Shown here: piece after piece, positions 4,716 to 26,886 of the stretch
Numbering within the stretch: position 1 is the stretch's first letter
Layout: each line of letters starts with the position of its first letter
NCBI GenBank assembly: GCA_040182905.1
Contig: JARQWU010000098.1
Span: forward strand, 1-33,053
DNA length: 33,053 nucleotides
Source of the DNA: Barthelona sp. PAP020
Lineage: Eukaryota
Direction: 5' to 3'
Translations under genes and position numbers: made by a program
Notes under the pieces: model-generated
Databases searched by the model: none
Seen by the model: the letters and a program-made list of their open reading frames with translations, nothing else
What the model was told of the DNA's origin: nothing

Positions 4716-5381
4716 ATGGCTACAAGAAAAAAATTCTTATTGAAAGTCATCCTTTTAGGTGAACCTGGGTATTTTATTATCAGACATAGAAACTAACTTT
4801 CAAGTGTTGGAAAAACTGCTTTAATGACTCAATTCTGTACGAAACGTTTTTCTGCCCAATATAGAGCCACATTGGGTGCTGAATTTCTTTCTAGAGACAT
4901 TGAAATCGATGATAGAAGAGTAAGTCTTCAAATATGGGATACTGCTGGTCATGAAAGATTCCAATCTTTGGGTTCTGTTTTTTTCCGTGGGGCTGATGCT
5001 TGTATTTTAGTTTTTGATGTAACTAATAAGACATCTTTTGATAAACTTACCAATTGGCATCATCAATTCAGTGTTCAAGCCATTAGTTCTGAACCTGACA
5101 CTTTCCCTTTTATTGTTATTGGTAATAAATGCGATAAAGAAGTCGATGAAAGAACCGTTACTCCACATGAAGCCAAGCGTTGGTGTACACATAATGGTTT
5201 TGAATATTTTGAAACCTCTGCAAAAGAAAATACCAATGTTGAAGAGGCTTTCAGAAACGCTGCTAAAAAGGCACTTCAAAGAAGTATGAACAGTGCTGGT
5301 CAGCAGAGTTTTTCAAATGCCATTCCCACAATGGAAGTTCGCAATACAGAGAGTGATGCTGATACTGGTTGTTCTTGTTAA
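4716..5381 (+). CDS. RAB7: Rab7-family small GTPase; exons 4716-4768 and 4805-5381
   Basis: Removing the 36-nt intron restores MATRKKFLLKVILLGEPGVGKT. Also WDTAGHERFQSLG, FPFIVIGNKCD, YFETSAKE and a C-terminal CSC prenylation motif. Confidence 0.9.
4769..4804 (+). other. 36-nt spliceosomal intron in Rab7
   Basis: GTATTT...ACTAAC-TTTC-AAG. Contains an in-frame TAA; removal restores the P-loop. Confidence 0.92.
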
Positions 5382-5493
5382 GTGATTTATTCTTTAAATT
5401 ACAATGAGTTTTGATAAAATTATGATTGATTGTTTGTTTGTTTGAGAAAGTGAGATTTTTTTTTTTCTTTTTGTTCAAAAATTGGCCCCACAA

Positions 5494-6066
5494 ATGAGTT
5501 CAAACGAAGCAAAAAAGGTAGATGGAGATATTGATGTGATGAATGAAGTTCTAAATAGCATGCCTTTGGATTATTTAATTTCTGCACCTATTGTTGCAGC
5601 TAATCGTGCCAATGAGGAAATGCAAAAAAGTACATTAAATTTTATTGAAGATTTATTGGATGAAAACCGATGTTTCAAAACTGCAACTTTCACTGTTCCT
5701 TCCAACAATCAGTATTCATCTAATGATCTCAGCTTAACTGTGCCCATTGCTTCATTGATTAATCCTCCAAGTATGATTGTTAGAGAAGTTGGAATTGATT
5801 TTTCTATGGAAGTTGGCCATACTGAAGTTGATACTTCATCAACAAATATGAAAGCCAAAGGAGGGGTTGATTTACCTTTATTAAAAAAGCCTATTGTTTC
5901 TGGAAAAGTTTCTTCTTCTCAAAGAAGTGAAAGAACAACAGATAGATCAGCTAAATACAGATTAAAACTTATTGCTACACAAGATGAAGTACCTGAAGGT
6001 TTGGCCAGGTTAAATAATATTCTTTCGCAATCAATATATGCCGTTCCAAAATCTAAAAAATTATAA
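5494..6066 (+). CDS. DUF2589-family protein (bacterial-type)
   Basis: Motifs MPLDYLISAPIVAA, VPIASLINPPSM..IDFSMEV and VSGKVSS...RTTDRSAKY...PEGLARLNNIL match the DUF2589 pattern as I recall it. First ATG at 5494. Confidence 0.78.
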   Translation: MSSNEAKKVDGDIDVMNEVLNSMPLDYLISAPIVAANRANEEMQKSTLNFIEDLLDENRCFKTATFTVPSNNQYSSNDLSLTVPIASLINPPSMIVREVGIDFSMEVGHTEVDTSSTNMKAKGGVDLPLLKKPIVSGKVSSSQRSERTTDRSAKYRLKLIATQDEVPEGLARLNNILSQSIYAVPKSKKL

Positions 6067-6431
6067 AATTGTATTTCATCTTCAATAGTCTTTAACGCAG
6101 CCAAATATTTTTAAATAAGATAAATTAATATGTATCACCTGGTTTTTATTTTTGCATCTGAGTTAATGCATGTTTTTTTTGAGAAGGATAAAATAAAGGA
6201 AGATTGAATTGATGATAAAGTTTTATTCAAAATTTAGAAAAGAATACTATCAATTTCAGTGAATAATGATGTGAGAATGTTCCCTTTTGTTTTTGATAAG
6301 AGTTCATTTTTAGAAATTCTTGTTTTAACCATTTGAGATTAAAACCAATAAATAATGATACTTAAAAATCAGTAAAAAAAAGCCATTATTTTTTTATTTG
6401 TTTCAATTTTCATTCAATTTTTTGAGTTTAG

Positions 6432-8498
6432 ATGAGCACAGACATTCAAAAACCAAGACAATGTTTGTTTATACCACATTCTGGGTCGAATGAATTGAAA
6501 AAGTGGAATTCTGATTCACCTGAATGGCTTATTCCAATACTTGATCAACCAGTTATATTATACACTTTAGAAATGATTGAAGCTTCATCTTTTGATGAAG
6601 TTTTTATAGTAATTTCTGATAATGAGAAAGATTTATTGGAAGATCTGTTAAAGACAACCAAATATTCTTCAGAAGGCAGACTCAGTAAAGTTGTTGTAAC
6701 TTTAGTTTCCATATCCAAAGATTATACCAGTTTTGGTGAAATTTTAAGAGCTTTAATTGATACTCCGTTATTTAAGAATGAATTAGAAAAGCATGTTGTT
6801 GTAATACATGGTTGTGTTATTTCGTCTCTAAATTTGAAATCTTTACTTGAATCTCATAAAGAAGCTTTTGGAAAAGAGGATGGATTGTTGTTTACTATTG
6901 CTGCCCAATCTCTAAAGTTGGGGCATTCAAATCAAACGAAATTGTCCCATTCTATTTTCATGGTTGATGAAAATGATATTATGCTTGACTGTGTTGATAG
7001 AAATGAAATTACAAATGTTTCAATTGAGTGTTTCAGAAAAACAGTTGGTAAGCCTTTTTTGATTCGAAATGATTTGAATCGTACTGGGATTTATGTTTTT
7101 TCATACAAGGGTTTTGAAGCAATGGGGTCACTTCATAATTTTGACATTCATCACATCGATGAGTTTTTGAAGCGTATTCAATGGGTATTGGGACAACGTG
7201 TTCGAATTGAGGTTATTGATGCGTCTAATTTAGCAATGAGGATAGACAATTTTAATTCTATGTTTTTGGCTTCAATCAATTATATGAGACATTTTTTTTA
7301 TCCATTAACTCCTCAAAACTTAAGAAATGTGAGTTTAACAGCGTTTGGTACGTATAGAAATCAATCATCCCAATTGAGTCATGATATCTTGATGAGTTCC
7401 CCTTTATTTATTGGGGAACATTCACATATTGGTTCCAAAACGAAATTACAAAGTTGTGTCATCAGTAAAAACTGTTCCATTGGAAAGGACTGTCATTTGG
7501 AGAATTGTTACATTTTACCTGGTGTTAGAGTTGATAATGACATTTCTCTTTCAAATTGTGTGGTCTTACCGAACGTTACAGTAACTAACAGATTGCCCTT
7601 TCCACAAAGCTCAATTATTCAACTTCCTGAAACTAAATTTGAGCGATTACCTTACGTTCATATTGAAAATTCTACAACTGGTACGGAAGACAATTTCAGT
7701 AAGATTAATAGGTTCATCGCACAAACAAAACAAGCGATTGTGTTAGGCATTATTAAAAAAAGTGATTACACTGATGTTTTTTCAGGTATTAAATCTTCCA
7801 GGTTCTCTTTTCAATTAAAAAATCAAGATCTGATCATGCCTATCATGATTGGGTGCATTGATTGTGCACTATTCAAATGTATAAACGATGCTAAGCCTTT
7901 ACAAAGTTTCTTGAATCATTTGATGCAGGCAAAAGATTATTTAAGTTTGAAACAATTCTTTTCAGATGATTCTGAAGACCCAAAAACATTGATTGAAGAA
8001 ATTGTTGCGTATTTGATTGATTTGAAGGAATTAAAGACTGTTGAAGATTTGGAGGAAAATTTCCAGTTTTATAGACTCAGTAATGATGCCTTTTTAAGAC
8101 AGTTCATTTTTGGAGTTGAAAACGATTATGATTGGGAGCAAATTTTGTTGATATGCCAAGAATTATACAAGACTTTCCCATTCATTATCAAACTTTTGTT
8201 TTCAATGAATGTTTTATCAAGAGATAATCTTATTTACTGGATTCAAGATGTTTGGGATCATGCAGAGGAGGAAGATGATGTAGAAAATGCAGAAAATTTG
8301 GATATTCAATTCACTCAAATGTTAACACCTTTGTTACAACAGACTGAAGAAGAGAGCAGTGATGATGAATCTGATTCAGATTATGAGTCGAGTAGTGATG
8401 ACAGTGGTGATTCTGGTGATGATTCTGAAGAAGAAGAAGAAGAAGAAGAAGAAGAAGAAGAAGAAGATGATGATGATGATAGTCAAGAAAGTAGTTAA
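6432..8498 (+). CDS. translation initiation factor eIF2B epsilon subunit-like
   Basis: Nucleotidyltransferase-like N-terminus (PEWLIPILDQPVILYTLE, IRNDL), hexapeptide beta-helix (IGEHSHIG..VISKNCSIGKDC), W2-like helical C-terminus and acidic tail. Confidence 0.8.
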   Translation: MSTDIQKPRQCLFIPHSGSNELKKWNSDSPEWLIPILDQPVILYTLEMIEASSFDEVFIVISDNEKDLLEDLLKTTKYSSEGRLSKVVVTLVSISKDYTSFGEILRALIDTPLFKNELEKHVVVIHGCVISSLNLKSLLESHKEAFGKEDGLLFTIAAQSLKLGHSNQTKLSHSIFMVDENDIMLDCVDRNEITNVSIECFRKTVGKPFLIRNDLNRTGIYVFSYKGFEAMGSLHNFDIHHIDEFLKRIQWVLGQRVRIEVIDASNLAMRIDNFNSMFLASINYMRHFFYPLTPQNLRNVSLTAFGTYRNQSSQLSHDILMSSPLFIGEHSHIGSKTKLQSCVISKNCSIGKDCHLENCYILPGVRVDNDISLSNCVVLPNVTVTNRLPFPQSSIIQLPETKFERLPYVHIENSTTGTEDNFSKINRFIAQTKQAIVLGIIKKSDYTDVFSGIKSSRFSFQLKNQDLIMPIMIGCIDCALFKCINDAKPLQSFLNHLMQAKDYLSLKQFFSDDSEDPKTLIEEIVAYLIDLKELKTVEDLEENFQFYRLSNDAFLRQFIFGVENDYDWEQILLICQELYKTFPFIIKLLFSMNVLSRDNLIYWIQDVWDHAEEEDDVENAENLDIQFTQMLTPLLQQTEEESSDDESDSDYESSSDDSGDSGDDSEEEEEEEEEEEEEDDDDDSQESS
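8427..8480 (+). repeat. coding (GAA)n/(GAT)n microsatellite, poly-Glu/Asp tail
   Basis: GAA run followed by GAT run, in frame with the eIF2B-epsilon tail. Confidence 0.85.
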
Positions 8499-8678
8499 GA
8501 AGAAAATTTGCAATGAATTTATAAAAGAATTGTTTTTTCATATTTTATTTTGACGGTTTTATTGTATTTTTTAACTTTTTTCTGTTGAACATCAATCTTT
8601 AATTAAAATTCTTTTTTGATATTTAGCACTTGTAAATAAATTTCTTTTCAATAATTTTCTTTGTAACTATCATTTTAT

Positions 8679-9323
8679 ATGAGTGTGTGGACTCCTTTAG
8701 AGGCAGATTGTGAATCTTTAAATACATATATCACCAATTTGGGTTGTGAAAATCTTCAATTGGTTGATTTATATGGTTTTGAACAAATGTTTTATGATAT
8801 GGTACCTCAACCTGTTCACGCTTTAATTTTATTATATCCTTTAAATGATTCAATTGTTGAGTTCGAAAAAAAATCAAATTTTGTAGAAAAACCTGAAAAA
8901 ATTACATATCTAAAACAATATATTGGTAATGCTTGTGGTACAATTGCGTTATTACACAGTATCTTGAATACTCAAACTGCTCAAATTCTTCCTGATTCTA
9001 TTTTAGATAAAATTCAAAAATTCAATGGAACTCCTGAAGAGATTGGTAATTTTTTGATGGATTTTGAGAAATTAGAAAGTGTTCATCAAGAATCTGCTGC
9101 TGAACAACTTACTGAAGTTCCTTCTGATGTTGATTTGCATTTTATTGCTTTTGTTGAAAAAGATGGACAATTGTATGAATTGGATGGTAGAAAAGAAGGT
9201 GTTGTTTCAAGGGGACCAATCCTTGAATCTTTTTTATCATCTTGTGGAAATGTTTGTAATGAATATATTTATAACGCCTCTGGTGATTTTAGATTTAATG
9301 CAATGGCTTTGGTTGATGTGTAA
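8679..9323 (+). CDS. ubiquitin C-terminal hydrolase, peptidase C12 (UCH-L3/Yuh1-like)
   Basis: WTPLE, VPQPVHALILLYP, catalytic QYIGNACGTIALLH, LHFIAFV...LYELDGRK. Confidence 0.93.
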   Translation: MSVWTPLEADCESLNTYITNLGCENLQLVDLYGFEQMFYDMVPQPVHALILLYPLNDSIVEFEKKSNFVEKPEKITYLKQYIGNACGTIALLHSILNTQTAQILPDSILDKIQKFNGTPEEIGNFLMDFEKLESVHQESAAEQLTEVPSDVDLHFIAFVEKDGQLYELDGRKEGVVSRGPILESFLSSCGNVCNEYIYNASGDFRFNAMALVDV

Positions 9324-9486
9324 CCACAAATAACTTAAATGTAAATATTTTGTGAATTTTTGTTTTTATCTTATTTTTGGTTTTAGGAATTCTCAACCTA
9401 AGATCAATAATAATCAAACAAAATTGACAAATTCATAAACCAAGGTATGAATATACACACAATTGGAATGTAAAAAAAAAGAAACC

Positions 9487-11057
9487 TCATTGTTTATCTT
9501 GAAAACTCCAGTTGAAAATATCTTCTTCTGTTCTAAGACCTGTGTACTTCTCAAAAGATCCATCTTCAAAGAATTTAATAAGGGTAGGGAATCCTTCAAT
9601 TCCTAATTCAGCAGGAGGTTCATTTGCATCACATTCAAAACTGCCAACAACAACTTCAGGATGTAATAATTCCAATTTAGCAGCAACATTGGCATAAATA
9701 GGTGCAAGAGCTTTACAATGACCACACCAAGTGGCCCAAAATTCCAAAATCTTAAATTTCTTGTCGGAAGCCTTGAATTGCTCAAAAGAATCACGAACAA
9801 CAATTTTAACAGGTTCATCATTTGTTTCTGGAATAGGAGCTGATTTTGGTTTGTTGACCAAACGACCTTCTTTGAAATCAGTCAGATATTTCACCAAATT
9901 TTCAGAATCAAAGGGCAAACTGTTTGGGAATTTGAAGAACTCGTTTTGATTATCTAAACTAAAGACAACAAGAGTTGGGAATTCAGTGATACCAAGTTGT
10001 TGAGCCAATTGCTGATGATCTTGTGCTTTGGCAAAGAAATATTTGAAATGATTTCCTTCTTCCTCATTTTCGAAATTTTCCATTGCCTTAACGATCTCTT
10101 TACCACGAATATGCATTAAAGAACTGTCACAGAAGTCAACAACGTTTGGTTTTTTATTTTGAGCCAATAGCATTTCCAAACGATCACGAGTTAAAACAGT
10201 CTGAAAGTTAGTTTATGAAAAATATGAAATTTGAAAAAAAACTAAAGATATAGCAACTGGCTTTCTACCTCACTAACACACGCTTAAGTTAGGAGGCCCT
10301 TGAAGTTGCATATAATACAAGAATATATCAATCATACAATTTTTGGTCTGGATAATTTGGAGACAGTGGGAATTACTTGATTCAATTCAGGATTTGCAAA
10401 AAGGTCAAACTTTTTTGGTTTTTCAAAAGCTTTAACAATGAACATTTGAGGTCTGTCTTGCTTAACTTTCAATCTCAATTGTGTCATTATCGATTTTTCA
10501 TAAACAATAGAACAAAATAAATCAGGCTGAAGATCACAAACTTCTCTAAAACGCTGTTCATACTGTTCATTACCAGCGGTAAAACCAACAAGTCGAGTAT
10601 CCATCATTTTCTTAAACTTGACAAGTTCAGATTTATTGTTCAAATCAATATAATTACCACGCATCATATTAATCAATCTTTGAACATTTATTTCAGTACC
10701 AACAGTGCCAATCCAAGGTGTAGCAACACCATGTCTGACAATGATACCAACACTTCTTGGAATAACAGATGGTAAATTTAAAGACTTAGCTAATTCAGTG
10801 TCCTTATTTACGTCAATATATCCAACAGTTAAACCGAACTTTGTGAAAGAATCAGAAGAATCAATAAAACGTCGTTTTATTTCGGCCAATTGTTGAGTTT
10901 CTTTACTATAAGTAAAAATAAATGCGTCTTCTTTGTTTTTAACAGCTTCGTCTAATCTTTCAATGGTGAAACGTTCATTTCCAGTTTTTTTTGAAGTAGC
11001 CTGAATCAATACAAATGAAATCGATAGAATTGCAAAAATATATGTTAATCTGTTCAT
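9487..11057 (-). CDS. protein disulfide isomerase-family protein, 477 aa; exons 11057-10338 and 10200-9487
   Basis: Two ORF-track pieces join in frame across a phase-0 intron. Signal peptide, thioredoxin-like domains, KSAPIPETNDEPVK linker and one WCGHCK site. Confidence 0.85.
10201..10337 (-). other. 137-nt spliceosomal intron in the PDI gene
   Basis: GTATGA...AAACTAAC-TTT-CAG; joins ...RPKI to TVLTRDRLEM in frame. Confidence 0.88.
10246..10314 (-). ncRNA. candidate intron-encoded single-hairpin H/ACA-like guide RNA
   Basis: GC-rich island. Lower stem GCAACU/AGUUGC, internal loop UCAAGG/AGAAAGCC, upper stem GCCUC-CUAAC/GUUAG-U-GAGGU, then AUA (ACA variant) 15 nt from the top of the loop. 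Target not identified. Confidence 0.55.
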
Positions 11058-11126
11058 TTAAAAATGGATAAAAATAAAAATAAAAGAAAAGTTTATTTTT
11101 CAGTGTTCAACAAAGAAACAAATTTT

Positions 11127-12620
11127 TTACCAAACTCTGTAAGCATGATAATGTACACCTTTATCAAAGGAAACTGCTTGTAAAGGCAAGAATCTAGAAT
11201 CAGTGTGTAAATTATCTTTGGCACAATCAGTTAATTTAAATACAAATAATTTATTTTGTAAAGCTAAATAAAATCTAGAAGAATCAGTGGGATGGAATCT
11301 AATCAAAAATGCTTGAGAGTGCTTGTTTCCACCATCCAAGCCCCAGATACGTTCAAACAACATCCATTCTTCAATACCAAAATGAAACAAATTCTTGGTT
11401 TTCTTTTCCACATTATTTCTCTTGAGAACCTTCACTTGTCCTTTAAAAGTACAAACAATTAAATATTTTCCATCAGGAGAATAATCTACAGAGGTTGCAG
11501 CAGTAATATCCAATGGATCAACAAGATGTTGATATGGTGCCATTGATAAATGAATGGGATGATACCAGTGGAATCTTAAAGCACCTTCATATGCGGTTGA
11601 CGCCATTAACATATTATTTTCACCTTGTTCTTCAGAACCATAAGGAGCTGTAGTATTCCAAGGATCAATGGCAAAATCCGTTACCCAATTGTGAGTCTTA
11701 TACCAAGGTGTATTTCCTTGATTGTTAGTAAAACGTTCAAAAAGAACAAAACGATAAATGTCTCTCCTTTCTAAAACATCATGGATAGGATCCAATAATT
11801 TGTCGGCGAAAAATCTAACTCCACTTTCAACAAAGTCTCCACGGTCATTTCTGATTTGCCAAGGAAGAAACCACTGTTCATCTTTTGCCAAATGATACTC
11901 ATAATCTTCGAACAAGGGTTTTCTCAAAGAAAATGAACTTGACAGAGGGATTCTTAATCTGAACGATAAGAAAGACTGATCAGATGAAGCTGCCATCAAA
12001 ACACGTCCATTATCTGTCCAACGAGACCTAACACACCATTTAGAAAATAAATTTGAGGAAAAAATGTGAGTCCAATTTTTTCCGTCCAAAAAATGGAAGA
12101 CTGCTATATTACCACTCTCCCATCCACCAGATGCAACTGCGAATACATCAGGTAATACAGGATTAAATTCAACATTCCAAACGTGTTCATAGAACATCTC
12201 TAAATATCTTTCATCCTTTTTATACTTCTTATGATCAATTAAAGAATAGCTTTGATATGATTTAAAGAGTTTTTCTTCGGAATTAAATCTATATATTTCT
12301 AATAAGAATCTGGTACCGCCAACAATTAACCATGTAGCTGAAGGATCCAAACTAACAGTTAAAACCTCATCGTGCAAAGTAAGTGTTTGGATTTTTTCAT
12401 TCTTATAATAAACATTGACTGTATGATCACGAGACCCAGTGACCATATAATCACCATTCTTGCTCAATGAAAAACCAGTTAAATCAAACTTATGATCATC
12501 TATTTCTCTTTCAACTTTGAAATACTCATTGTGTCGATAAATTGAGTAATCAGTCTTTTCACATTGCACACAATTAATGGCTATTAATACAACAATAAAA
12601 AATATCGAATAATATTGCAT
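11127..12620 (-). CDS. WD40/beta-propeller protein with N-terminal signal peptide
   Basis: Hydrophobic N-terminus; repeats YMVTGSRDHTVNVY, LMAASSDQS, SVDYSPDGKYLIVCTFKGQVKV. Confidence 0.75.
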   Translation of the reverse strand: MQYYSIFFIVVLIAINCVQCEKTDYSIYRHNEYFKVEREIDDHKFDLTGFSLSKNGDYMVTGSRDHTVNVYYKNEKIQTLTLHDEVLTVSLDPSATWLIVGGTRFLLEIYRFNSEEKLFKSYQSYSLIDHKKYKKDERYLEMFYEHVWNVEFNPVLPDVFAVASGGWESGNIAVFHFLDGKNWTHIFSSNLFSKWCVRSRWTDNGRVLMAASSDQSFLSFRLRIPLSSSFSLRKPLFEDYEYHLAKDEQWFLPWQIRNDRGDFVESGVRFFADKLLDPIHDVLERRDIYRFVLFERFTNNQGNTPWYKTHNWVTDFAIDPWNTTAPYGSEEQGENNMLMASTAYEGALRFHWYHPIHLSMAPYQHLVDPLDITAATSVDYSPDGKYLIVCTFKGQVKVLKRNNVEKKTKNLFHFGIEEWMLFERIWGLDGGNKHSQAFLIRFHPTDSSRFYLALQNKLFVFKLTDCAKDNLHTDSRFLPLQAVSFDKGVHYHAYRVW

Positions 12621-12671
12621 TTTGTATCAAAAGTCTTTGAAGAAAAAACTGTTTTATTATTGAATATTTTT

Positions 12672-12983
12672 ATGAATTCACAATCAGTCAAAAATATTGC
12701 TCATTTAAGGTCTTCATGCGATATTCTGCAACAAATGACCAACAATTTAATGAATGAATTGTTGTTGGCACCCAAAACAAAAATAATAGCTAACAATGAT
12801 CCCATTCCTAATATTGAAAAAAAAGTTCAAGATTTTGAAACAGCTTGGACAAATTCTACTTATTTATGTTCAACATTGTGGGATAAAATTGATCAAACTG
12901 AAAATGTTGAACCGGAAGAAGAAAAACCCTCATCTCACCAAAGAAGACAGTTTTACATGGCGAAACAAACTCAAAGAAGATGA
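12672..12983 (+). CDS. hypothetical 103-aa helical protein
   Basis: ATG at 12672, protein-like composition, fills the gap between neighbours. No family recognised. Confidence 0.55.
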   Translation: MNSQSVKNIAHLRSSCDILQQMTNNLMNELLLAPKTKIIANNDPIPNIEKKVQDFETAWTNSTYLCSTLWDKIDQTENVEPEEEKPSSHQRRQFYMAKQTQRR

Positions 12984-13159
12984 TGAAAAAAAAATAACAA
13001 GAATATTTTACTTTTTAACTCAATATTTTCAAAAAGAATATTTTGGTTCACAGCAATCAACAACAGGTATATCATTCACATAACAAAGGTTCATTTTTGT
13101 TGAAATTTAACTTTCAAAAGGAATAATTCAATTACAAATAAAACAAATCACTGTTTTTT

Positions 13160-13423: not shown

Positions 13424-13486
13424 TAAAAAAGAAACAATGAAATTGTGAAGAAAAAAGGAAAAACACATTTTTTTTTTGGATTGATA

Positions 13487-14389: not shown

Positions 14390-14533
14390 TTTATAAATTA
14401 GTAAATTGTATGTACTTTTTTTGCCTGCTTTTTTCAAAAGTGAGTTTAGTTTTACATAAAAAAGAAAATTTTCAGGTTTTGTTTTTATTTAATTCTGCAT
14501 AATGTTTTTTATTTTCATAAAAGCGATGTCATT

Positions 14534-14731
14534 TATCCAATTATTCTTCTTCATTAAAATTCTTCCATTGTTTCCAAAAATTGAGGTTTACCTTTTGGAA
14601 ATTGACTAATAATAAACCCTCATCTTAATTTTATCAAATGACACACTTGTCTCAGGATTTGTGTCATTCTTTTGGAGGTACCACAAGCGAGAGAGAAAAT
14701 GGGGAAAAGAAGAATTAGGGAGGATACAATT
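14534..14731. ncRNA. unassigned multi-branch structured RNA candidate
   Basis: Six nested complementary segments in an ORF-free 465-nt convergent spacer (see finding). Confidence 0.4.
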
Positions 14732-14854
14732 GCCAAAATATCAGTTATAAAAGAAAATATCTGAAGTTATATTGGTGATTTTTTGAGGAGAAAAAGAAAA
14801 GTACTTTTTTATTAAAAATAATGTGAAACTACGGGAAAATAATCAAAATAAAAA

Positions 14855-18832: not shown

Positions 18833-19198
18833 ATTATTTGGTATTTTGTTGGACTATAAGTTTTTTCTATTCTAATTATACAACCTATCTTATCTATTTT
18901 TTTAATTTAAAAGAACAAATACCTGATAATACATGTTTTTAAAAAAAAAAAAAATTTTTCCCCCTTTTCACACGCATGTTATTTCTTCAAAAAATGGGAA
19001 TTATTTAAAAAGTACACAAAGAAAATAAAGAAATATTAATATTAGGTTTATAACATTGAGAAAACAACCACATCAATTCTAAATTTTCTTTTGCATTGAC
19101 TTGGGATTCTTTTTGGTTTTATCTTTTTAAAGATAATTGAAAAGTAATTCTTATGAAACTGTAATAATCATAAGTTACAAAATAAATGAAAAATGTGT

Positions 19199-20122
19199 TT
19201 ACAATTCCGGTGATCTCTTATTATCAATCATTTCATCAAAAATTTGATCATTGTCATGCTTTTCAGAAAAATTTTCTTCTTTATCAAAATAATTTAATTT
19301 TCTTTTGACAATATCTTCGGTTATTTCACTGTCAACATCACATTCTTTCACAAATTTACGAACAAAATCAACAACATAATTTGCTACTATTCCCACCGTT
19401 TCTTTGTTTCCAAATAATGGTAAATTTAAGGGAAAATTTAGAGTATTGAATTTAAAACGACATGGCTTGGCCGTTTCAGGAAATTCAAAATTTTTGATTT
19501 GATAATTCGCCCTTGCTTCAGTTTTTGAAACAAAATATTCAATTAACAACAGTCTTTCAATGATTTTAACGATAATTCCATGTGAAACTTCATTCATTCG
19601 TAAACTTTGTAAAAATGAGAGTGATCCACCATGATTGGATGTTTGGTCAAAAATACTGTTTTTTGACCTTGTTCGAATGGTGACTAAGCCTTTATTTTGT
19701 GCTCGTTTTTTCAATTTTCTGTATGATTTTGGGGTTAAACATTTTGTAAAGTATATTTTTTGTTGATTTAAATTAAACAAAAACACTTTTATTTGTTTTT
19801 TCAACATTTTCAAAGATATTTTTGTTAAAGAGGGTTCAATTAATAAAATAAGCTCCTCATCTACTTTTTTTCGCAATAATTTCCTTCGAATAAATTTTGA
19901 AACTTCAATTTCCAATAAATATTCAATATTTGTTGTATTATTTGGTTTTAACTTATCAATTGGCCTAGGTTGAACAATTTCACATGACAAATCTTCTTTG
20001 GATTTGAATGATAATGCGGATAAATTCCTAAATATCTCAAAATTACTTGATCGAGACATTGGATAACATGCCATTGTTTCAAAACATATCACACAAAATG
20101 AAAACAAATCCAAACATGGCAT
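19199..20122 (-). CDS. hypothetical protein (start ATG 20122 or 20074)
   Basis: About 300-aa ORF; no family recognised. Confidence 0.6.
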   Translation of the reverse strand: MPCLDLFSFCVICFETMACYPMSRSSNFEIFRNLSALSFKSKEDLSCEIVQPRPIDKLKPNNTTNIEYLLEIEVSKFIRRKLLRKKVDEELILLIEPSLTKISLKMLKKQIKVFLFNLNQQKIYFTKCLTPKSYRKLKKRAQNKGLVTIRTRSKNSIFDQTSNHGGSLSFLQSLRMNEVSHGIIVKIIERLLLIEYFVSKTEARANYQIKNFEFPETAKPCRFKFNTLNFPLNLPLFGNKETVGIVANYVVDFVRKFVKECDVDSEITEDIVKRKLNYFDKEENFSEKHDNDQIFDEMIDNKRSPEL

Positions 20123-20223
20123 ATAAACGGTGCATAGAAAAATAAACAAAAAAAGATGGGAATTATAATAAAATAACTGAAATTTATGATTGAATGAAAA
20201 TAAAAAAAAAACTGAATTAACGA

Positions 20224-20359
20224 CTAATTATGTTAGAAAATGAACAATTGATTCAAAAAAAAAAGCAATCAGAAAGCAATTTCACACCATGAAATACAAA
20301 AGTCTGAAGACCGTTGCGCTTAGGTATCATCATTGCAAGATATAATAACATAAACAAAC
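20224..20359 (-). other. 136-nt snoRNA-hosting intron (intron 2 of the non-coding host)
   Basis: GTTTGT...TTCTAAC-ATAAT-TAG enclosing a C/D snoRNA. Confidence 0.72.
20265..20336 (-). ncRNA. box C/D snoRNA, snR73/U35 (SNORD35) functional homologue
   Basis: Terminal stem GCAA/UUGC, box C AUGAUGA, D' CAGA, D CUGA. D' guide GCAACGGUCU-U pairs with conserved LSU UAGACCGU(C)GUG; the D'+5 base pairs with the first C of AGACC (yeast 25S Cm2959). Confidence 0.85.
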
Positions 20360-20369
20360 TTTTTAAAAA
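20360..20369 (-). other. 10-nt non-coding micro-exon TTTTTAAAAA
   Basis: Flanked by a CTAAC-TTAA-TAG acceptor and a GTTTGT donor, between two snoRNA introns. Confidence 0.65.
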
Positions 20370-20493
20370 CTATTAAGTTAGATTAGTTCATGAATTTGAA
20401 AAATGAAAAAATTCAGATATAAAGTTGTCGTCAGTGAATCAGACATATGCTTGAAAAAAAACATCATCAAAATTATGTCAATATAAAACGTAC
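20370..20493 (-). other. 124-nt snoRNA-hosting intron (intron 1 of the non-coding host)
   Basis: GTACGT...TCTAAC-TTAA-TAG enclosing a C/D snoRNA. Confidence 0.72.
20409..20474 (-). ncRNA. box C/D snoRNA, snR74/U27 (SNORD27) functional homologue
   Basis: Box C UGAUGA (20469-20464), D' CUGA, C' UGACGA, D CUGA (20416-20413). D' guide CAAGCAUAUG is exactly complementary to 18S CAUAUGCUUG; D'+5 selects yeast 18S Am28. Confidence 0.9.
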
Positions 20494-20541
20494 TTTTTTA
20501 AAGGAAAAAAATCATTCTGGGTTTTTTTGAAACATTTCATT

Positions 20542-20589
20542 TTTTTCAAATAATTGGATTATTTTTTATCTTATTTTTCAAATAATTGG
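20542..20589. repeat. 16-nt direct repeat TTTTTCAAATAATTGG x2
   Basis: Copies at 20542-20557 and 20574-20589 in the divergent region between the snoRNA host and the LRR gene. Confidence 0.6.
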
Positions 20590-20666
20590 GGTTAATTTCT
20601 TCACGAATATAAAATTTATGTGAAAATTTGTTTGATTTAATTGTTTTGGTGAAATAATTTTTTTGA

Positions 20667-21272
20667 ATGAACCATTTGTCACGTGGTATTGTGGATTCTT
20701 TATATCAATTAACGATAGATACTAGTGTTGATGCTTCTGCACAAAATTTTACGGAATTGGTTGAACTTGTTGACAAAAATTGTTTTGACAGAGTGAGATT
20801 TTTAGATATTTCAAAGAATTTTATCACAACAATAGAAACTAATTATTTTTTGATGTTTCCAAATTTGATTGAACTTAATTTGACTGCAAATAATTTAACA
20901 AACTTGGATATCAATATACCTAATTCATTGAAAAAACTGTATTTAGGATATAATAGGATGACAAATATTCTCATTGAAGGGGGTAATTGTTTAGAAATAT
21001 TGAATATTTCCATAAATTTTTTGATGGATGTTGAGTTTTTGCAAAACATACAATTGCCACAATTAAAAGTCTTGTCATTGAATCACAATAAACTAATTTT
21101 TGATAAATTTATAAACACAATAAAGGGAATTGATTTCTCTCAACAGTTTCCTAATTTAATTAGGTTTCATTTGATAGATGCTTTTGAACATCCATTAATT
21201 TTGGAAGAACAAATATGTTTGCAAGAAATTTTTGAAAAAAAAGGTGTTATTGTTACATTAAATCTAGAATAA
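20667..21272 (+). CDS. leucine-rich repeat protein
   Basis: LxxLxLxxN repeats: FLDISKN, LIELNLTAN, LKKLYLGYN, LEILNISIN, LKVLSLNHN. Confidence 0.88.
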   Translation: MNHLSRGIVDSLYQLTIDTSVDASAQNFTELVELVDKNCFDRVRFLDISKNFITTIETNYFLMFPNLIELNLTANNLTNLDINIPNSLKKLYLGYNRMTNILIEGGNCLEILNISINFLMDVEFLQNIQLPQLKVLSLNHNKLIFDKFINTIKGIDFSQQFPNLIRFHLIDAFEHPLILEEQICLQEIFEKKGVIVTLNLE

Positions 21273-21285
21273 TCTCATCCGTACT

Positions 21286-22485
21286 CTAGTCTAGTTCTAA
21301 ACTCTCCAATAGTGATATCAACTGAGTTGGAACTTCTATACCATCAGGTAATAATTTGTACAATTGTTCTTTTGTTGGAGGAATGATGTTAGTCTTATTT
21401 TGAATTGTACTGTAGATCCACCCGAGAATTGAAGAGAAAAGTCTGTTAAAATTCTCTTTATCCATCACATCATGCAGAGCTTCTCTAATTTCAGTGAAAT
21501 AATCGATTAGATCATCAGAAAATTGGTTAAAATTGATAATCATTTTTTGGTTCTGTTGTGTAGCAGAATTGTCAGCGAAGAAATTCATTACCTTACCGAC
21601 CAATTTTCTTTCGGCAACAATATTTTCTTCAAGCAAACTAATTGCAAAATGCGTCAATAAATGGTTGAATCTGGTTTGAGATTCTTTGAATTTTTTGTTG
21701 ATGTTGGTCAAAATTTTTTTGTTTTTCTTCAAAATTTCACATTTCTTTGAATACGCTTTAAAACAAAGGTATAAAGCTTCCAAATCCAACGTGATTAAAA
21801 AAAAACTCCGTAAATCTTCTTTTGTGATACGAGTTGGAAATTTATCGGGTAAACAAAGTCTTGAATTGATTAATGAAATTACTTCAGTCAAATTTTCGAA
21901 TCCTGCTTCCATTTCTTCTTCAATAACATCTTGTTCAAAAAATTCTTGTAAAATGTTTATAACATGCACTAATCTTGTATTTACAACCTGTTGTTTGTTT
22001 TTATTTGAGTCAATTGTAATTTCAACTCTTTCAATTTTTAGAACATCCAAGTTTTCGAAAATTTTCAAAATTTTGTCAAATAAAGTTTGATTTTTTAAAT
22101 TTTCTGCTTGCTTTTGACTCTCTATTTGTTTTAATTTGTTGAAATAATAATTATTTATTGAAGACGATTCTCTATGCAGTATTTCTTCTAATAATTCTGA
22201 AATATTTAAAGAATTAATGTCGTCATTTCTTATTGCCTCAGATATATCTTGATAACTCTTGATATACTCAATATCATTATCTATTTTTATGATTTCATCA
22301 TTATATTTAATTATTTGATCATTTAGATTGTTTTTTTTCAAATAATGGTCGTAAAAATCTGCATTAGTCATGATTTTTAAACTATCCAGTTCAATGTTTA
22401 ATTTCCTTATAAATTCTTCTTCAAGCGCCTTCACATTTTCTTCAGTAGCACCTTCTAAGTCGATTTGTTCAATACTCCAAAACAT
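21286..22485 (-). CDS. hypothetical helical/coiled-coil protein
   Basis: 399-aa ORF; no family recognised. Confidence 0.7.
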   Translation of the reverse strand: MFWSIEQIDLEGATEENVKALEEEFIRKLNIELDSLKIMTNADFYDHYLKKNNLNDQIIKYNDEIIKIDNDIEYIKSYQDISEAIRNDDINSLNISELLEEILHRESSSINNYYFNKLKQIESQKQAENLKNQTLFDKILKIFENLDVLKIERVEITIDSNKNKQQVVNTRLVHVINILQEFFEQDVIEEEMEAGFENLTEVISLINSRLCLPDKFPTRITKEDLRSFFLITLDLEALYLCFKAYSKKCEILKKNKKILTNINKKFKESQTRFNHLLTHFAISLLEENIVAERKLVGKVMNFFADNSATQQNQKMIINFNQFSDDLIDYFTEIREALHDVMDKENFNRLFSSILGWIYSTIQNKTNIIPPTKEQLYKLLPDGIEVPTQLISLLESLELD

Positions 22486-22865
22486 TTGTTGAAAAAAAAA
22501 AGAAATTAAGAAAAAAAGCTTTTTATGAGCATATTTTTTTATGGACTCATACTTCTATAAATTTGGAATATGAATGATATTCAAAATTTTATTTTTAAGG
22601 TGATTTAACAAAAATATCCAAATTTTACAATTCTCTTCTTCACACACTATTGCAGCCCAGTCTAAAAATTGAAAAATTTGATTCCTCAATAATTGTTATC
22701 ATACTTTAGTAATTCAATATGAAAAAAGAATTTTATCAAAAAATGTTCATGTCATGACCAAAAAAAAAAGATGATTTTGCTTTTACAAATCATGTAATGT
22801 TTGAAAAAATTTTCTTTGAAAGTGAGACAAAAAAAATGTTTCAAGTCCGTTCATGTACAAATAAA

Positions 22866-23581
22866 TTATTCAACATTCTTTAAATCAATGGGATTGTTTT
22901 CAACCTCTAATTTGGCTTCACCAGCATCAACATCCACAACTTCATATTTTTTGAAAATTTTGAAGGGTCCTCCCATTGGAACAAAAGTTCTGTTGAAATG
23001 AGTATTTAATAAAGTACCAGCAAAACCATAAAAACCAGTTGCAGAAATTACAGTTTCAGAATATGCAGCTAAATGATGAGCCCATTCCCATCCTTTGAGA
23101 ACTTGCAAGGAAAGTCCAAAGAATAAGAAATCAATTTCAACAAAAATTATAAAAAGGTAGGTGTTGGTCTCAGTCGCTCCAATTGTCATAACAACAGAAA
23201 AAATAAGATACCCAACAAAAGCAAAACCAAGTTGATTTGCATCTACTGCAGCTTTAACATCAGCACCATAATAACCAAGAGTCATCATCCAAGTCATGGC
23301 AACAGCAAACCAAAAGAATCCGTAACTATAATATTAGTAAATCATTTGAACGAAAGCAATTACCCAAAAAATGCAGTACCTCCAAAAGTGTTATTGAGAC
23401 GTAAGTCCATATAACCAGCAACAATTTGTGCAAGAGCTCCTAAAAATACACACCAAGGAACAATGGCAGCGGTATTATTGGTAATACCCAATTTTGCAGT
23501 ACAAGCTACACAAGTAACCATAGATAAACCGAATAAACCCAAAGGGGATGGGTTGCCGTAAGGTTTTTGATTGTCAGTCAT
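22866..23581 (-). CDS. GPR1/FUN34/YaaH (SatP/AceTr) acetate-succinate channel, 225 aa; exons 23581-23364 and 23325-22866
   Basis: Signature NPSPLGLFG and GALAQIVAG. Splicing restores NTFGGTAFFGYGFFW. About six hydrophobic helices. Confidence 0.9.
23326..23363 (-). other. 38-nt spliceosomal intron in the SatP gene
   Basis: GTAATT...TACTAAT-ATTA-TAG; removal restores the frame and the conserved motif. Confidence 0.9.
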
Positions 23582-24127
23582 AATTTTAATGAAAAAAAAT
23601 TCAAATATGAAATTTGAGTTTAAAAATAAAACTTCTCTTTTTTTTTCGCACAAAAAAAGAATGGAAGATTATTGTCATAATATGTTTAAAAGCTTATTAA
23701 TTGTTTTTAATACATTTTTCATGATGATGAAAGAGAGCATTTTTGTTCACTCATTCTTTTTTTTTGTCTGCCTTCAAATTGTTATAACAGTTGTGCAATG
23801 AAAATTGTAAATTATATTTCATTGTTTCTTTGCAATGTAAAAGAAAATTTTTTTTTTGGGAATTTGGGGAAACCTTCTTGCTTTACAAAACAAATTCGAA
23901 ATTTTTTTGTTTTCACATTGTTTATTTTTCAATCAGGGCATTAATAGCAACAACGAAAGTTGAAAAACATTGGCAAACTCTTTGTTTTGCTGGGTGTTTT
24001 TTAAAATTAAAAGTCTTTATCGGTTTTTGTTCATTCTTTTTGAAAACTAAATTATCATTATTATTGTTTGTTAATAAATGTTATACTTCAAAAAAAATAA
24101 TAAAATAAACTTTTTATATACTGAAAA

Positions 24128-26569
24128 TCAATGAATATATTCAAATTTCAAATCAGAATCCATTACATTTATACCCAATAAGGTTGGAGAAAAGTCAATG
24201 GTTTCGCTTTCATCAAAAGAAAAGAAATCAGAGTTGACTTCTAATTGAGGAATTATAGATGTTGAATCTCTGTGAAATATTTGTTCTGAAGGACCCAAAT
24301 GCTTAGCTTTAAGTAAATTTTGTGTTACAGCATCAATTGACAATTCTTTTTTCTGAATTGGCAATTGAAAAGCAATTGCAATTGTTTCTAAGATACGTTT
24401 CATGGAAGTAACATCTTCTTCTTCAACTAAATTTTTATCATTTGAAGGCGTTGAAACTTCTTCAGGTGTTTTTGGATTTGACAAACGACTCTTTCGAATT
24501 GGTTTTTTGTCAGGTTTGCCTTTTTTATTTTGTTGACCAATATCAGGTGTTGCTGCATGTCTGTGATCAACTTGACTTTTAACATGACTCAAATCCATTG
24601 GCTTATTAATAATTTTTACCCTGCTTTTCCGAGGTTTTTCTTCCTTTGATTTCTTTTCTTTTTCTTTCATTCTTTGATGACGCTTTTGAGGTTGTTTTGA
24701 ATTATTAGTTTCAAAATCAGAGTCAAAAGAAGTTTCTTCCTCTTCTTCCTCTTCTTCCACGTCATCTTCATTGTCAGTATTATCAATTTGCCAGGGTTTG
24801 GAAGAATCGTCCTTTTTTGACATGGCAGCATGTAGCTTTGCTTTATCTTTTCTTGCAGCATCCAACTTATCTTGCTGTAATTTTTCTCTTTTGGCTTTGG
24901 CTTCTGCTTGTGCCTTCTTTCTTTCAAGAACCTTTTGTCTTTTCCTTTCAATTTCCGCTTGATCTATTTCATCACTTTTTATGTTATTATTGGTATCAGC
25001 CGAATGTTTGTCCAAATGTTTGTCCTCCTTAATTTTAACTTCATCAACTTTCTGAACATCATCTCTTCCAGTTGGTGTGTTATTAATTAATTTTTCAACA
25101 GATATCTCTTTGTTTCCAAAAGCATTCACCAATTTGAATAAATCATTGGATCTTTGTCTTAGTTGAGAAAATAAAGTTTTGAGGAACGACTCTTGATTAT
25201 CCATTTTTTCAGTTTCTTCGATCATTTGTGACAGTTCAACAATTTCCCTTTTCAAAGATATTGATTGGTTCATGTTCAAAATCAATCGAATAATTAAGCC
25301 TCTAGACCACCTTTGAATGACTATGGCATTTGATGAGGATTGTGGATCCTTTGATAAGTTAGAACTCTTATAAATAGGTTCAGGCGTTGTAATTGCATTC
25401 ATTTGGGATTCATTCGTGCGTCTTAATTCAGCTTCTATCATTTCTTCCCAATTGTATGCTTTGGGATCATTTAAAGAAGGCTCCATAGTTTCCTCGAATT
25501 TATTGGGTTGCAATATCTTTTCACTCTGTTCTTGCCTGACTAAGTGTAAATTGAGTTGGGTGTTTTCAACAAAAGTTGGCATTGTTTGAATTTTTGACAT
25601 TTTTTCAATTTTTTGACTCAAAATTCTGTTTATAACACTACCATAAAAAATCTTACCAATTTTTTGAATAAAATTTCTAGCAAAACGTCTTTCTTCATAC
25701 TTTAAAGCATTAATATGCGCTTGTTCCTTTCTAGAATCAAATAATTTCACTAACTCATCGATTTTATCTCGATTAACGATATGGGTAACTTTTTGTTGTT
25801 GGGCAAATAAAAGTGGAGTGATATCAGCAACAGAAGTGCTTATTTTTCTTTCAACGCTATCTTTAAACAAATTCATAGGTATTTCATCTCTTACTTTGTT
25901 TAATATTGAATCGTACATGTACATATTAACATTAGGTACGTTATTAATGGATGAATTTGAAAAAATTCTGTATTTTGATGACATTTCGTGAAAATGTGGA
26001 TTTAATGGTTGAAGAAATTCTTCTTTTTTTTCTTCCTTTACGGTCATAAGATTCAACGGAAGCTTTGTGGGAATAGGTTTCCTAAAAGCTATTGTTTGGG
26101 TTGTGGTCATGGTATTTTGTGAATCAGGCAAACTCATTTCTTCTTGATTCATGTCTCGAGAAAATTCATTTTTTGATACTTCGATTTCCTTGTTTTCATG
26201 ATCAATTTTTTGTTTATCTTCAAAATCATTGCTATCTTCATCTTCATCCTCTTCATAACTGTGATACATTTCAGTGATTTTTAATGAATTGGCATCATCA
26301 TTCAAAAAAGGAGAGTTGGAAGCTTCTTTTCTTGCATCCATTAATCGTTGATAAAAACTATCTTGTTCAGGACTTTCAACAACAGCAGAAGTTAATGGCG
26401 TTGTAGAAAGTACAGTCTTTGGGGTAAAATCTAATGATAAATTCGTGGATATTGTTGATGGTGAAGGTGAATGTTGATTGGCATATTGAGACAATTTAAT
26501 TCGATTAGCTGCATGAACTGCCTTTAATCTTTCTAAAATCTGCTTTCGTGGAGTTTCAGATTCACTCAT
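24128..26569 (-). CDS. large coiled-coil protein with one IQ-like motif
   Basis: 813-aa ORF; AIVIQRWSRGLIIR fits IQxxxRGxxxR; charged coiled coils. Confidence 0.72.
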   Translation of the reverse strand: MSESETPRKQILERLKAVHAANRIKLSQYANQHSPSPSTISTNLSLDFTPKTVLSTTPLTSAVVESPEQDSFYQRLMDARKEASNSPFLNDDANSLKITEMYHSYEEDEDEDSNDFEDKQKIDHENKEIEVSKNEFSRDMNQEEMSLPDSQNTMTTTQTIAFRKPIPTKLPLNLMTVKEEKKEEFLQPLNPHFHEMSSKYRIFSNSSINNVPNVNMYMYDSILNKVRDEIPMNLFKDSVERKISTSVADITPLLFAQQQKVTHIVNRDKIDELVKLFDSRKEQAHINALKYEERRFARNFIQKIGKIFYGSVINRILSQKIEKMSKIQTMPTFVENTQLNLHLVRQEQSEKILQPNKFEETMEPSLNDPKAYNWEEMIEAELRRTNESQMNAITTPEPIYKSSNLSKDPQSSSNAIVIQRWSRGLIIRLILNMNQSISLKREIVELSQMIEETEKMDNQESFLKTLFSQLRQRSNDLFKLVNAFGNKEISVEKLINNTPTGRDDVQKVDEVKIKEDKHLDKHSADTNNNIKSDEIDQAEIERKRQKVLERKKAQAEAKAKREKLQQDKLDAARKDKAKLHAAMSKKDDSSKPWQIDNTDNEDDVEEEEEEEETSFDSDFETNNSKQPQKRHQRMKEKEKKSKEEKPRKSRVKIINKPMDLSHVKSQVDHRHAATPDIGQQNKKGKPDKKPIRKSRLSNPKTPEEVSTPSNDKNLVEEEDVTSMKRILETIAIAFQLPIQKKELSIDAVTQNLLKAKHLGPSEQIFHRDSTSIIPQLEVNSDFFSFDESETIDFSPTLLGINVMDSDLKFEYIH

Positions 26570-26735
26570 TTTTTAAAAACAAAAAAAGCATTGTAAAAAA
26601 ATAACTTTTGAAGTTAAAGGCTTTTTCATTCTTTACAAAATTACACAATAATAGAAAAGAAGAATATTGTTTATGTTTAATAGTTATGATTGAATAAATA
26701 ATAAAAACTGAAAATGACGAAAAGAAATAAAATAA

Positions 26736-26886
26736 CTAAGGTTAGATTTTGTTAATTCAAAGGAAATGAAAGAATCAGTTAAATATGTACGATCCTCATT
26801 GCCCGTTTAAAAATTTGACTATAACGAACAGGCTCAAGCGAGAGGAACATAATTTTAATCATTTAAAAAAGATGAACAAAACATAC
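26736..26886 (-). other. 151-nt non-coding (UTR or host-gene) intron enclosing a hairpin RNA
   Basis: AG|GTATGT donor and TCTAAC-CT-TAG acceptor, outside any CDS. Confidence 0.6.
26783..26851 (-). ncRNA. candidate intron-encoded single-hairpin H/ACA guide RNA
   Basis: Lower stem UCCUC/GAGGA, internal loop, upper stem GCCUGUU/AACGGGC (G-U pair supports the - strand), then ACA-UAU. Confidence 0.62.

Follow-up and report, generated by a model that had tools for sequence, protein, structure and literature searches.

Long introns of Barthelona sp. PAP020 as probable hosts of single guide RNAs: six introns in a 33-kb window

All four long introns found in a 33,053-nt stretch of the Barthelona sp. 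PAP020 genome (GenBank assembly GCA_040182905.1, contig JARQWU010000098.1, positions 1 to 33,053; hereafter the window) probably host one guide RNA each, three of the box C/D type and one single-hairpin H/ACA-like RNA, and are long because they consist of that RNA plus 63-72 nt of flanking sequence. Splicing would set the RNAs free: the host would be transcribed and spliced, snoRNP proteins would assemble on the intron, the lariat would be debranched and trimmed, and the released RNAs would act as guides for the modification of rRNA, by ribose methylation or by pseudouridylation.

Six introns are present in the window at the lengths given by a first-pass annotation, and each of them shows the signals of a U2-type spliceosomal intron: a GT donor, an AG acceptor and, 6-9 nt upstream of its 3' end, the branch motif CTAA(C/T). 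Two are tiny and carry no insert, namely intron 1 in codon 18 of Rab7 (4769..4804, forward strand, 36 nt) and intron 5 in the gene for the acetate transporter SatP (23326..23363, 38 nt), which like the remaining four lies on the reverse strand; a length of about 36-38 nt is probably the default here. Intron 2 (10201..10337, 137 nt) interrupts a PDI-family gene with a spliced product of 477 aa. Intron 3 (20370..20493, 124 nt; non-coding context), intron 4 (20224..20359, 136 nt; with a weaker GTTTGT donor) and intron 6 (26736..26886, 151 nt; 92 nt past one stop codon and 166 nt ahead of the next start codon) are, as had been conceded from the outset, predicted from splice signals only. Between introns 3 and 4 the sequence predicts a micro-exon of 10 nt (20360..20369, reverse strand), and the splice-site model scores its skipping, i.e. 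a single 270-nt intron, at least as high as the two-intron arrangement.

When the 6,612 non-coding bases were scanned for the branch-plus-AG pattern, which had been derived from these same six introns, seven matches were obtained against a shuffle mean of 2.4 (at least seven in 13 of 500 shuffles), six of them being the introns and the seventh lying opposite one of these on the other strand; the scan brought up no long empty intron in the non-coding bases of the window. The splice-site model is weak in leave-one-out, with true 3' ends ranking 1, 4, 5, 11 and 13 among 85-99 and the SatP intron being missed; the signals of intron 6 have the top score in the window and rank 1 of 96 in leave-one-out.

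Splicing is confirmed at the transcript level for intron 1, the only one of the six with such support, as the protein translated from spliced Rab7 has exactly the sequence of P0001, an EukProt entry that derives from a transcript and bears the label Barthelona sp. PAP020. For introns 2 and 5, homology suggests removal from the transcript. A profile of 26 PDIs aligns without a gap over the intron 2 junction with 177.7 bits when spliced, compared with 162.4 bits for exon 2 alone and a maximum of 161.8 bits with shuffled first exons (30 of 30), and this test settled the junction after a single-sequence profile comparison of exon 1 had been uninformative (probability 0.5%). The spliced SatP protein shares 58% identity with P0162 over 201 aa, again without a gap. 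Searches returned no transcript-derived PDI or SatP protein from Barthelona sp. PAP020; exact look-ups in EukProt matched five uninterrupted ORFs among 19 window-derived queries, the 14 misses being uninformative. For the ORF below introns 3 and 4, a search of 1.84 billion representatives brought up no relative. With Rab7 splicing confirmed by a transcript and homology backing the junctions of PDI and SatP, the intron signal model has an anchor.

The long introns share a nearly fixed geometry. In the elements of introns 3, 4 and 6, box C stands close to the 5' end and box D (CTGA) close to the 3' end; the box C positions within these introns are 24, 27 and 25, and the end of box D lies 35, 36 and 33 nt before the branch A, respectively; this constant distance of 33-36 nt would reflect a position-dependent snoRNP assembly coupled to splicing. 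The PDI hairpin RNA extends from intron position 28-29 to a point about 38 nt short of the branch A. The elements of introns 3, 4, 2 and 6 measure 58, 73, 65 and 88 nt, a wider range than the 65-72 nt initially proposed, and have a G + C content of 31-45% versus 17-24% in the flanks. Folding of the elements alone is not significant (z from -1.6 to +0.9), and a terminal stem of 4 bp is seen in intron 4, whereas introns 3 and 6 have only weak external duplexes (-1.8 and -3.2 kcal/mol). Pairs of a C box and CTGA followed within 25-45 nt by the branch signature occur three times, with a shuffle mean of 0.012 and none of 500 shuffles reaching three, for a spacing range chosen after the data were seen. 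C/D-like pairs alone are not enriched (six seen, mean 4.0, 99 of 500 shuffles), and the three non-intronic pairs in the window are at chance level. An Rfam scan of the whole window gave 11 matches at E values up to 10, none at the gathering score.

Possible targets were sought in 5-7 surrogate eukaryotic rRNA units instead of Barthelona's own rRNA. The pattern by which the panel was picked itself contains two of the motifs targeted, and close relatives account for three of the seven members. A motif scan of metagenomes for rRNA yielded 120 loci, mostly archaeal-looking and none identified as barthelonid, while viral contigs gave two short LSU fragments only, among seven loci; a separate search of viral contigs with Rab7 brought up one distant match. 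The D' guides, which adjoin their D' boxes and are directed at conserved positions of the rRNA, coincide with a known guide or form 9-12 pairs with surrogate rRNA, the D guides are weak, and in the aligned-panel test two of seven guides or pockets clearly beat chance, those being the D' guide of intron 4 and the pocket of intron 2.

In intron 4 the predicted box C/D RNA (20265..20337, reverse strand) comprises a C box at 20333-20327, a D' guide at 20318-20308, a D' box at 20306-20303 and a D box at 20272-20269. Its D' guide is predicted to target the LSU near the peptidyl-transferase centre (U35-type), with 9-11 Watson-Crick pairs in all five surrogate units; two of 150 shuffles were as good in the aligned-panel test, for a panel selected for this very motif. 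No target was found for its D guide in the surrogate rRNAs (143 of 150 shuffles as good).

Intron 3 contains a predicted box C/D RNA of the U27 type and probably a dual guide (20413..20470, reverse strand; C 20470-20464, D' guide 20453-20443, D' 20442-20439, C' 20434-20428, D guide 20430-20417, D 20416-20413). The D' guide directly precedes the D' box, as in U27, and is identical over 11 nt to the guides of Rfam SNORD27 and TtnuCD28; according to its annotation, the site targeted by TtnuCD28 (17S 23-37) is conserved among plant, yeast and human. In Rfam the RNA reaches 18.5 bits with SNORD27 (RF00086), below the gathering score of 52, and 21.6 bits of 70 with TtnuCD28 (RF02303), its best E value being 0.003 and under every gathering score; SNORD121A, the top match, was not adopted, its guide being mismatched. 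The RNA is predicted to work like U27 without being fileable as a member of the SNORD27 family. In the aligned-panel test neither guide is above chance (133 of 150 shuffles as good for D', 125 of 150 for D). With one surrogate, L041, the D guide forms an 11-pair duplex by eye, at a site that we take to be apparently Am619/Am668 (U36). The U27 site itself corresponds to 18S Am27 in human and Am28 in yeast and Arabidopsis (table in PMC8583080). TtnuCD28 differs in that it is intergenic and has a D guide assigned to a tRNA, whereas the RNA described here is predicted to be intronic.

The 151-nt intron 6 had been taken for a hairpin/ACA host; however, box C/D fits better, since under the H/ACA reading the ACA lies 12 nt below the pocket and none of four registers gave a target above chance. 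The predicted box C/D RNA (26775..26862, reverse strand) has a degenerate C box (26862-26856), a D' guide (26850-26839) and a D' box (26837-26834), followed by a 7-bp internal stem, a C' box (26799-26793), a D guide (26792-26779) and a D box (26778-26775), the C and D' boxes having one mismatch each. The D' guide is complementary to the sarcin-ricin loop, with 10-12 Watson-Crick pairs in five of five surrogate units (p 0.002-0.03 each), and is marginal in the G-U-tolerant aligned-panel test (11 of 150 shuffles as good); this predicted guide is the item that would surprise a ribosome specialist. The D guide has eight pairs with a site near LSU 320-350, which is not significant (48 of 150), and an 11-nt match that two or three related units show in the 5' region of the LSU was discarded because it falls into the internal stem and not beside a box. 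Complementarity to the sarcin-ricin region is likewise known from the Tetrahymena C/D RNA TtnuCD32 (PMC6315972, in part).

For the PDI intron a predicted single-hairpin H/ACA-like RNA is proposed (10246..10310, reverse strand), with the hairpin at 10309-10253, pocket strands at 10303-10298 and 10266-10259 and a box at 10251-10249 that reads ATA, not ACA as had been annotated. The box lies 15 nt below the pocket top, within the H/ACA spacing of 14-16 nt, and the pocket fits one aligned LSU site, a U in six of seven surrogate rRNAs (3 of 300 shuffled pockets as good). The fold has a z of -1.56 (17 of 300 shuffles equally low), no Rfam match comes near threshold, and instead of two hairpins with an H box and ACA there is one hairpin, ATA and no ANANNA after it. 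A weak match to PsiU1-6 (E 0.49) had suggested U1 as the target, a reading that was dropped, few pairs being seen by eye with the U1 end. In the single-hairpin H/ACA RNAs of trypanosomes the box is AGA. These RNAs share the single hairpin, the pocket and the presence of a box on the 3' side but are clustered and not intronic (PMC4855143), while those of Giardia are described as two-hairpin (PMC11427974, in part).

An alternative reading of this one intron, which we consider unlikely, is that its hairpin, rather than encoding an RNA, is a stem-loop by which the effective length of the intron is reduced, as proposed for long introns of diplomonads and Trichomonas (PMC6679479, in part). The single hairpin, the ATA, the missing H box and the lack of an Rfam match would fit. 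However, 80 nt would remain without the 57-nt hairpin, not 36-38, the flank of 72 nt resembles that of the C/D hosts (63-66 nt), and the pocket geometry, the box 15 nt below it and the fit to a conserved LSU uridine are left unaccounted for. For the three C/D RNAs in non-coding DNA it could in turn be argued that they are real but independently transcribed, as the intergenic snoRNAs of Giardia are (PMC11427974, in part), and that their splice signals are chance matches or relics, the donor of intron 4 being weak and the branch-AG pattern being expected 2.4 times by chance in this non-coding DNA. Yet all three lie 24-27 nt after a GT donor and 33-36 nt before a branch motif, three such links being reached in 0 of 500 shuffles, and the PDI element shows the same geometry inside a homology-supported intron, so that independent transcription appears very improbable next to release from a spliced intron.

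How far the pattern extends beyond the window is a different matter, and six introns are too few to establish a genome-wide rule. That every long intron carries an RNA element holds for the four found here, each with a predicted snoRNA-like element, and only for this window; that the tiny ones are empty holds too, but is uninformative, because 36-38 nt is too short for a snoRNA, the smallest element being 58 nt. The annotation had gone further, to the effect that nearly every intron above about 100 nt hosts a guide RNA genome-wide and that hosting may be a main reason why introns persist. In favour of such a rule are the four of four long introns with an element and the absence of a long empty one, the length half of the pattern as seen in Paramecium (PMC5485702, in part) and the higher conservation in position of RNA-bearing introns (PMC3675471, in part). 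Against it stand the sample of four, the description of longer diplomonad and Trichomonas introns as plain stem-loops (PMC6679479, in part) and the split of Trichomonas introns into 25-26 versus 41-178 nt, in a paper whose available text does not mention snoRNAs (PMC6260720). Moreover, four per 33-kb window would scale to about 1,600 snoRNAs in a 13.2-Mb genome, versus 142 (63 plus 79) reported for Trypanosoma brucei (PMC4855143, in part), and the window is therefore probably enriched, snoRNA hosts probably being a minority class of introns that is over-represented here. Two of the three coding introns are empty, and the SatP intron was probably gained without any snoRNA, as it is empty and the named top matches of its gene are all bacterial; hosting as the main reason for persistence thus lacks support. 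Taken jointly, the two halves of the rule are improbable, while the near-diagnostic value of a length above about 100 nt, taken alone, has a chance somewhat short of even.

A bolder version, which we regard as speculative and unlikely in its entirety, would have Barthelona keep much of its snoRNA set in introns of a fixed template (24-27 nt, RNA, 33-36 nt, branch point) whose length reads out RNA content, including single-hairpin H/ACA guides outside trypanosomes as well as a C/D RNA directing methylation of the G beside the ricin-site A of the sarcin-ricin loop, a loop reported as unmethylated in plants. The fixed spacing offers a simple search template for divergent snoRNAs missed by Rfam, and these introns a compact test system for position-dependent snoRNP assembly.

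Barthelona is a free-living anaerobic flagellate, a metamonad and sister to Giardia's group. For Giardia and Trichomonas, a survey of 2011 rated snoRNAs in introns as "highly unlikely" (PMC3228867, in part), and no report of snoRNA-hosting long introns in metamonads was found in the literature, where some unseen supplements of PMC11603281 and PMC11316075 could hold intron statistics; the readable supplements of the latter contain neither "intron" nor "snoRNA". If true, hosting in Barthelona would suggest that fornicate ancestors already produced snoRNAs from introns, coupled to splicing, and that this mode of production disappeared along with the introns.

The general pattern is not new, the layout being already known from Paramecium, yeasts and animals. 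For the snoRNA-bearing introns of Paramecium the source cited in PMC5485702 is Chen et al. 2009. Paramecium tetraurelia likewise has a tiny default class of 20-30 nt and a handful of clearly longer introns of about 80 nt that contain snoRNAs, in a genome-wide set as opposed to six introns of 36-38 versus 124-151 nt in Barthelona (PMC5485702, in part). Unlike Paramecium, Barthelona is a metamonad poor in introns, and the branch point of these introns adjoins their 3' end. Introns 3 and 4, a tandem around the predicted micro-exon outside reading frames, resemble yeast and UHG-type arrangements, UHG/GAS5-type genes being comparable snoRNA hosts, and the host of the introns in non-coding context may be non-coding, a 5' UTR or, for intron 6, a 3' UTR. 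In budding yeasts, non-coding or de-intronised snoRNA hosts have been described (PMC4202332, in part, citing Mitrovich 2010). In vertebrates, finally, intronic C/D snoRNAs also have a fixed position relative to the branch point, about 50 nt being optimal for an assembly aided by Aquarius/IBP160 (PMC8162545, in part), whereas in Barthelona the distance is 33-36 nt and is accompanied by a fixed 5' spacer of 24-27 nt.

The long introns of the window contain snoRNA-like elements, and it is the geometry of these introns, a point absent from the first-pass annotation, that provides the strongest evidence for hosted RNAs. In the minus-strand introns 3, 4 and 6 (124, 136 and 151 nt), the first base of box C is at intron position 24, 27 and 25, and the branch A lies 35, 36 and 33 nt past the end of box D, respectively; in intron 2 of the PDI gene (137 nt, minus strand), the hairpin RNA begins at position 28-29, and some 38 nt separate its end from the branch A. 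The flanks add up to 66, 63, 63 and 72 nt (introns 3, 4, 6 and 2) and have a G + C content of 17-24%, compared to 31-45% in the elements. Three branch-linked C/D pairs were observed against a shuffle mean of 0.012, with three found in none of 500 shuffles, for a C/D-to-branch spacing window that was picked post hoc, after data inspection. None of the four elements reached the Rfam gathering score or folded significantly better than its shuffles. The proposal of the first-pass annotation that every intron above about 100 nt carries an RNA is borne out in the window for all four of them, and the tiny introns of Rab7 (intron 1, 36 nt, plus strand) and SatP (intron 5, 38 nt, minus strand) are indeed empty, as a consequence of their size.

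With respect to the introns themselves, all six start with GT, end with AG and harbour CTAA(C/T), the branch A of which precedes the 3′ end by 6-9 nt. Intron 1, located after Rab7 coding base 53, presumably also the intron position in human RAB7A, is confirmed by a spliced translation that equals without any difference the transcript-derived EukProt protein P0001, labelled Barthelona sp. PAP020; five further ORFs of the window were matched letter for letter in EukProt (19 window-derived queries), and the source is accordingly this free-living metamonad or a strain almost identical to it. Splicing out intron 2 yields a PDI of 477 aa (9487-11057, minus strand) whose alignment crosses the junction and whose profile score is 177.7 bits, as opposed to 162.4 when exon 2 is scored by itself and no more than 161.8 with a shuffled first exon (30 of 30). 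The CGHC motif of this protein is found in its last thioredoxin domain only, and not in the first. Without intron 5, SatP aligns gap-free over 201 residues with a database protein at 58% identity. No reading frame contains introns 3, 4 or 6, which were predicted from splice signals. The branch-AG signature occurs seven times in 6,612 non-coding bases (the six introns and one opposite-strand echo), compared to 2.4 expected, and 13 of 500 shuffles gave as many. In leave-one-out scoring by weight matrix, the true ends took ranks 1, 4, 5, 11 and 13 out of 85-99, and SatP went undetected; given this weakness, introns with weaker signals could have been overlooked in the window. Upstream of Rab7 (4647-4709, plus strand), a donor-like GTATGA, whose exon-end context resembles that of intron 6, is followed after 26 and 63 nt by AGs lacking a branch motif and is possibly an overlooked 5′ UTR intron of this gene.

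Potential targets were sought in five to seven eukaryotic rRNA units from a metagenome scan, standing in for Barthelona rRNA; as this panel was drawn by a pattern that included the intron-4 and intron-6 target motifs, matches to it show that the sites are widespread and lie beside the boxes, not that they are present in Barthelona rRNA. The 73-nt C/D RNA of intron 4, with a terminal stem of 4 bp, has a D′ guide that forms 9-11 Watson-Crick pairs in all five surrogate LSUs (2 of 150 shuffles) at a site which we take to be Cm2959/Cm4536 (U35); for its D guide no target was found in the panel (143 of 150 shuffles). In the 58-nt C/D RNA of intron 3, the D guide forms, by eye, an 11-pair duplex with the SSU of one unit (L041) just 3′ of the conserved central motif, presumably the Am619/Am668 site, and against the panel it performed no better than shuffles (125 of 150). 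The D′ guide of this RNA has the same sequence for 11 nt as the consensus guides of SNORD27 and the Tetrahymena C/D RNA TtnuCD28, and an annotation gives the target of the latter (17S 23-37) as conserved between plant, yeast and human (PMC3273799); U27 guides Am27/Am28 (PMC8583080). In the single hairpin of intron 2, 15 nt separate the pocket from an ATA box below it, and the best fit of the pocket is to one aligned LSU column, with U in six of seven surrogate units (3 of 300 shuffles).

Intron 6 can be read as an 88-nt C/D RNA with a canonical D box, a C box with one mismatch and a 7-bp stem drawing D′ and C′ together. In all five surrogate units, 10-12 nt of its D′ guide pair with the sarcin-ricin loop (p 0.002-0.03; 11 of 150 shuffles in a looser test); by the fifth-nucleotide rule, the predicted target would be a base that is presumably the G following the ricin-site A. 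Near LSU 320-350, at a conserved site that is probably the human Am398 region, the D guide forms eight pairs, a match without significance (48 of 150 shuffles). Reading intron 6 as H/ACA instead places the ACA 12 nt from the pocket, and none of four registers gave a target above chance. Caution towards the predicted methylation of the loop comes from Tetrahymena TtnuCD32, described as pairing near the sarcin-ricin loop without methylating; in plants the loop is seemingly unmethylated according to a review (PMC11542601), and a guide RNA for the loop itself was not found in the portions of the open-access literature searched. Short eukaryotic LSU rRNA fragments covering this loop also occur on two viral contigs (L003, 1-130; L004, 2360-2500), which we regard as chimeric assembly or captured sequence.

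The window is gene-dense, with about 21 reading frames, a G + C content of 29.8% and genes for Dna2, Rab7, eIF2B-epsilon, ubiquitin hydrolase, a PDI-family protein, a CLASP-domain protein, SatP and tubulin. It also encodes a protein of the mainly bacterial DUF2589 family (5494-6066, plus strand; Pfam E 5e-22). The hosts of introns 3, 4 and 6 may be 5′ UTRs, a 3′ UTR (intron 6) or separate non-coding RNAs: introns 3 and 4 are parted by a predicted 10-nt micro-exon, with a divergent gene at a distance of 173 nt and, 101-164 nt downstream, possible starts of an orphan ORF, for which a search found no relatives, and intron 6 lies 92 nt from the preceding stop codon and 166 nt from the following start codon. 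Just past their acceptors, introns 4 and 6 are followed by stretches of some 45 nt that resemble each other and end in TTCAATCATAA (20223-20180 and 26720-26680, minus strand), a likeness reached by one of 5,096 non-coding window pairs, yet by 39 of 1,000 dinucleotide shuffles; the shared core occurs reversed at 5421-5430 and again at the intron 2 donor, and the stretch could be a promoter or 3′-end element. Outside introns, two convergent genes are separated by a G + C-rich island (14614-14751; up to 46%) that contains a long hairpin, has neither ORF nor Rfam match and is a possible RNA gene; further G + C-rich islands outside called genes lie at 1-423, 23928-24001 and 30939-31060.

Genome-wide, the link between intron length and a hosted RNA is a conjecture drawn from four introns, and the evolutionary claim is unsupported. 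That hosting is a main reason why introns persist is contradicted by arithmetic: four elements per window would scale to about 1,600 RNAs per genome (13.2 Mb, 30.5% G + C, 6,305 proteins; PMC11316075), compared to 142 snoRNAs in T. brucei (PMC4855143), and two of the three coding introns are without insert. At a T. brucei-like density, three loci in one window have a probability of 0.006, i.e., about two windows per genome, and the window is therefore probably enriched in snoRNA loci. SatP (22866-23581, minus strand) is about 58% identical to bacterial proteins, yet has a spliceosomal intron; as all named proteins among its best 120 matches are bacterial, mostly from Clostridia and Bacillus, its sequence suggests a likely horizontal transfer, the intron probably having been gained afterwards.

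Barthelona, whose clade is sister to fornicates, belongs to a lineage that appears to be new for intron-hosted snoRNAs: no report was found for Barthelona, Skoliomonas, metamonads or intron-poor protists in the open-access literature, and introns receive a single mention, in the methods section, in the accessible text of the genome paper (PMC11316075). Giardia snoRNAs are described as intergenic (PMC11427974), and intronic ones in Giardia and Trichomonas were called 'highly unlikely' (PMC3228867). Longer introns of relatives were described as plain stem-loops (PMC6679479), and for Trichomonas a two-class split in intron length was reported, snoRNAs being unmentioned in the accessible part of the source (PMC6260720). 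The same source gives, there without comment, ten intron-like sequences located outside T. vaginalis protein-coding genes, which are possible non-coding snoRNA hosts. The mechanism itself is of an already known kind, as the pattern has been described in Paramecium (PMC5485702) and yeasts have both intron-hosted and de-intronised snoRNAs (PMC4202332). In vertebrates, a set distance to the branch point promotes splicing-coupled snoRNP assembly, aided by Aquarius (PMC8162545), and by analogy the constant C/D-to-branch spacing in Barthelona may result from splicing-coupled assembly following the same logic.
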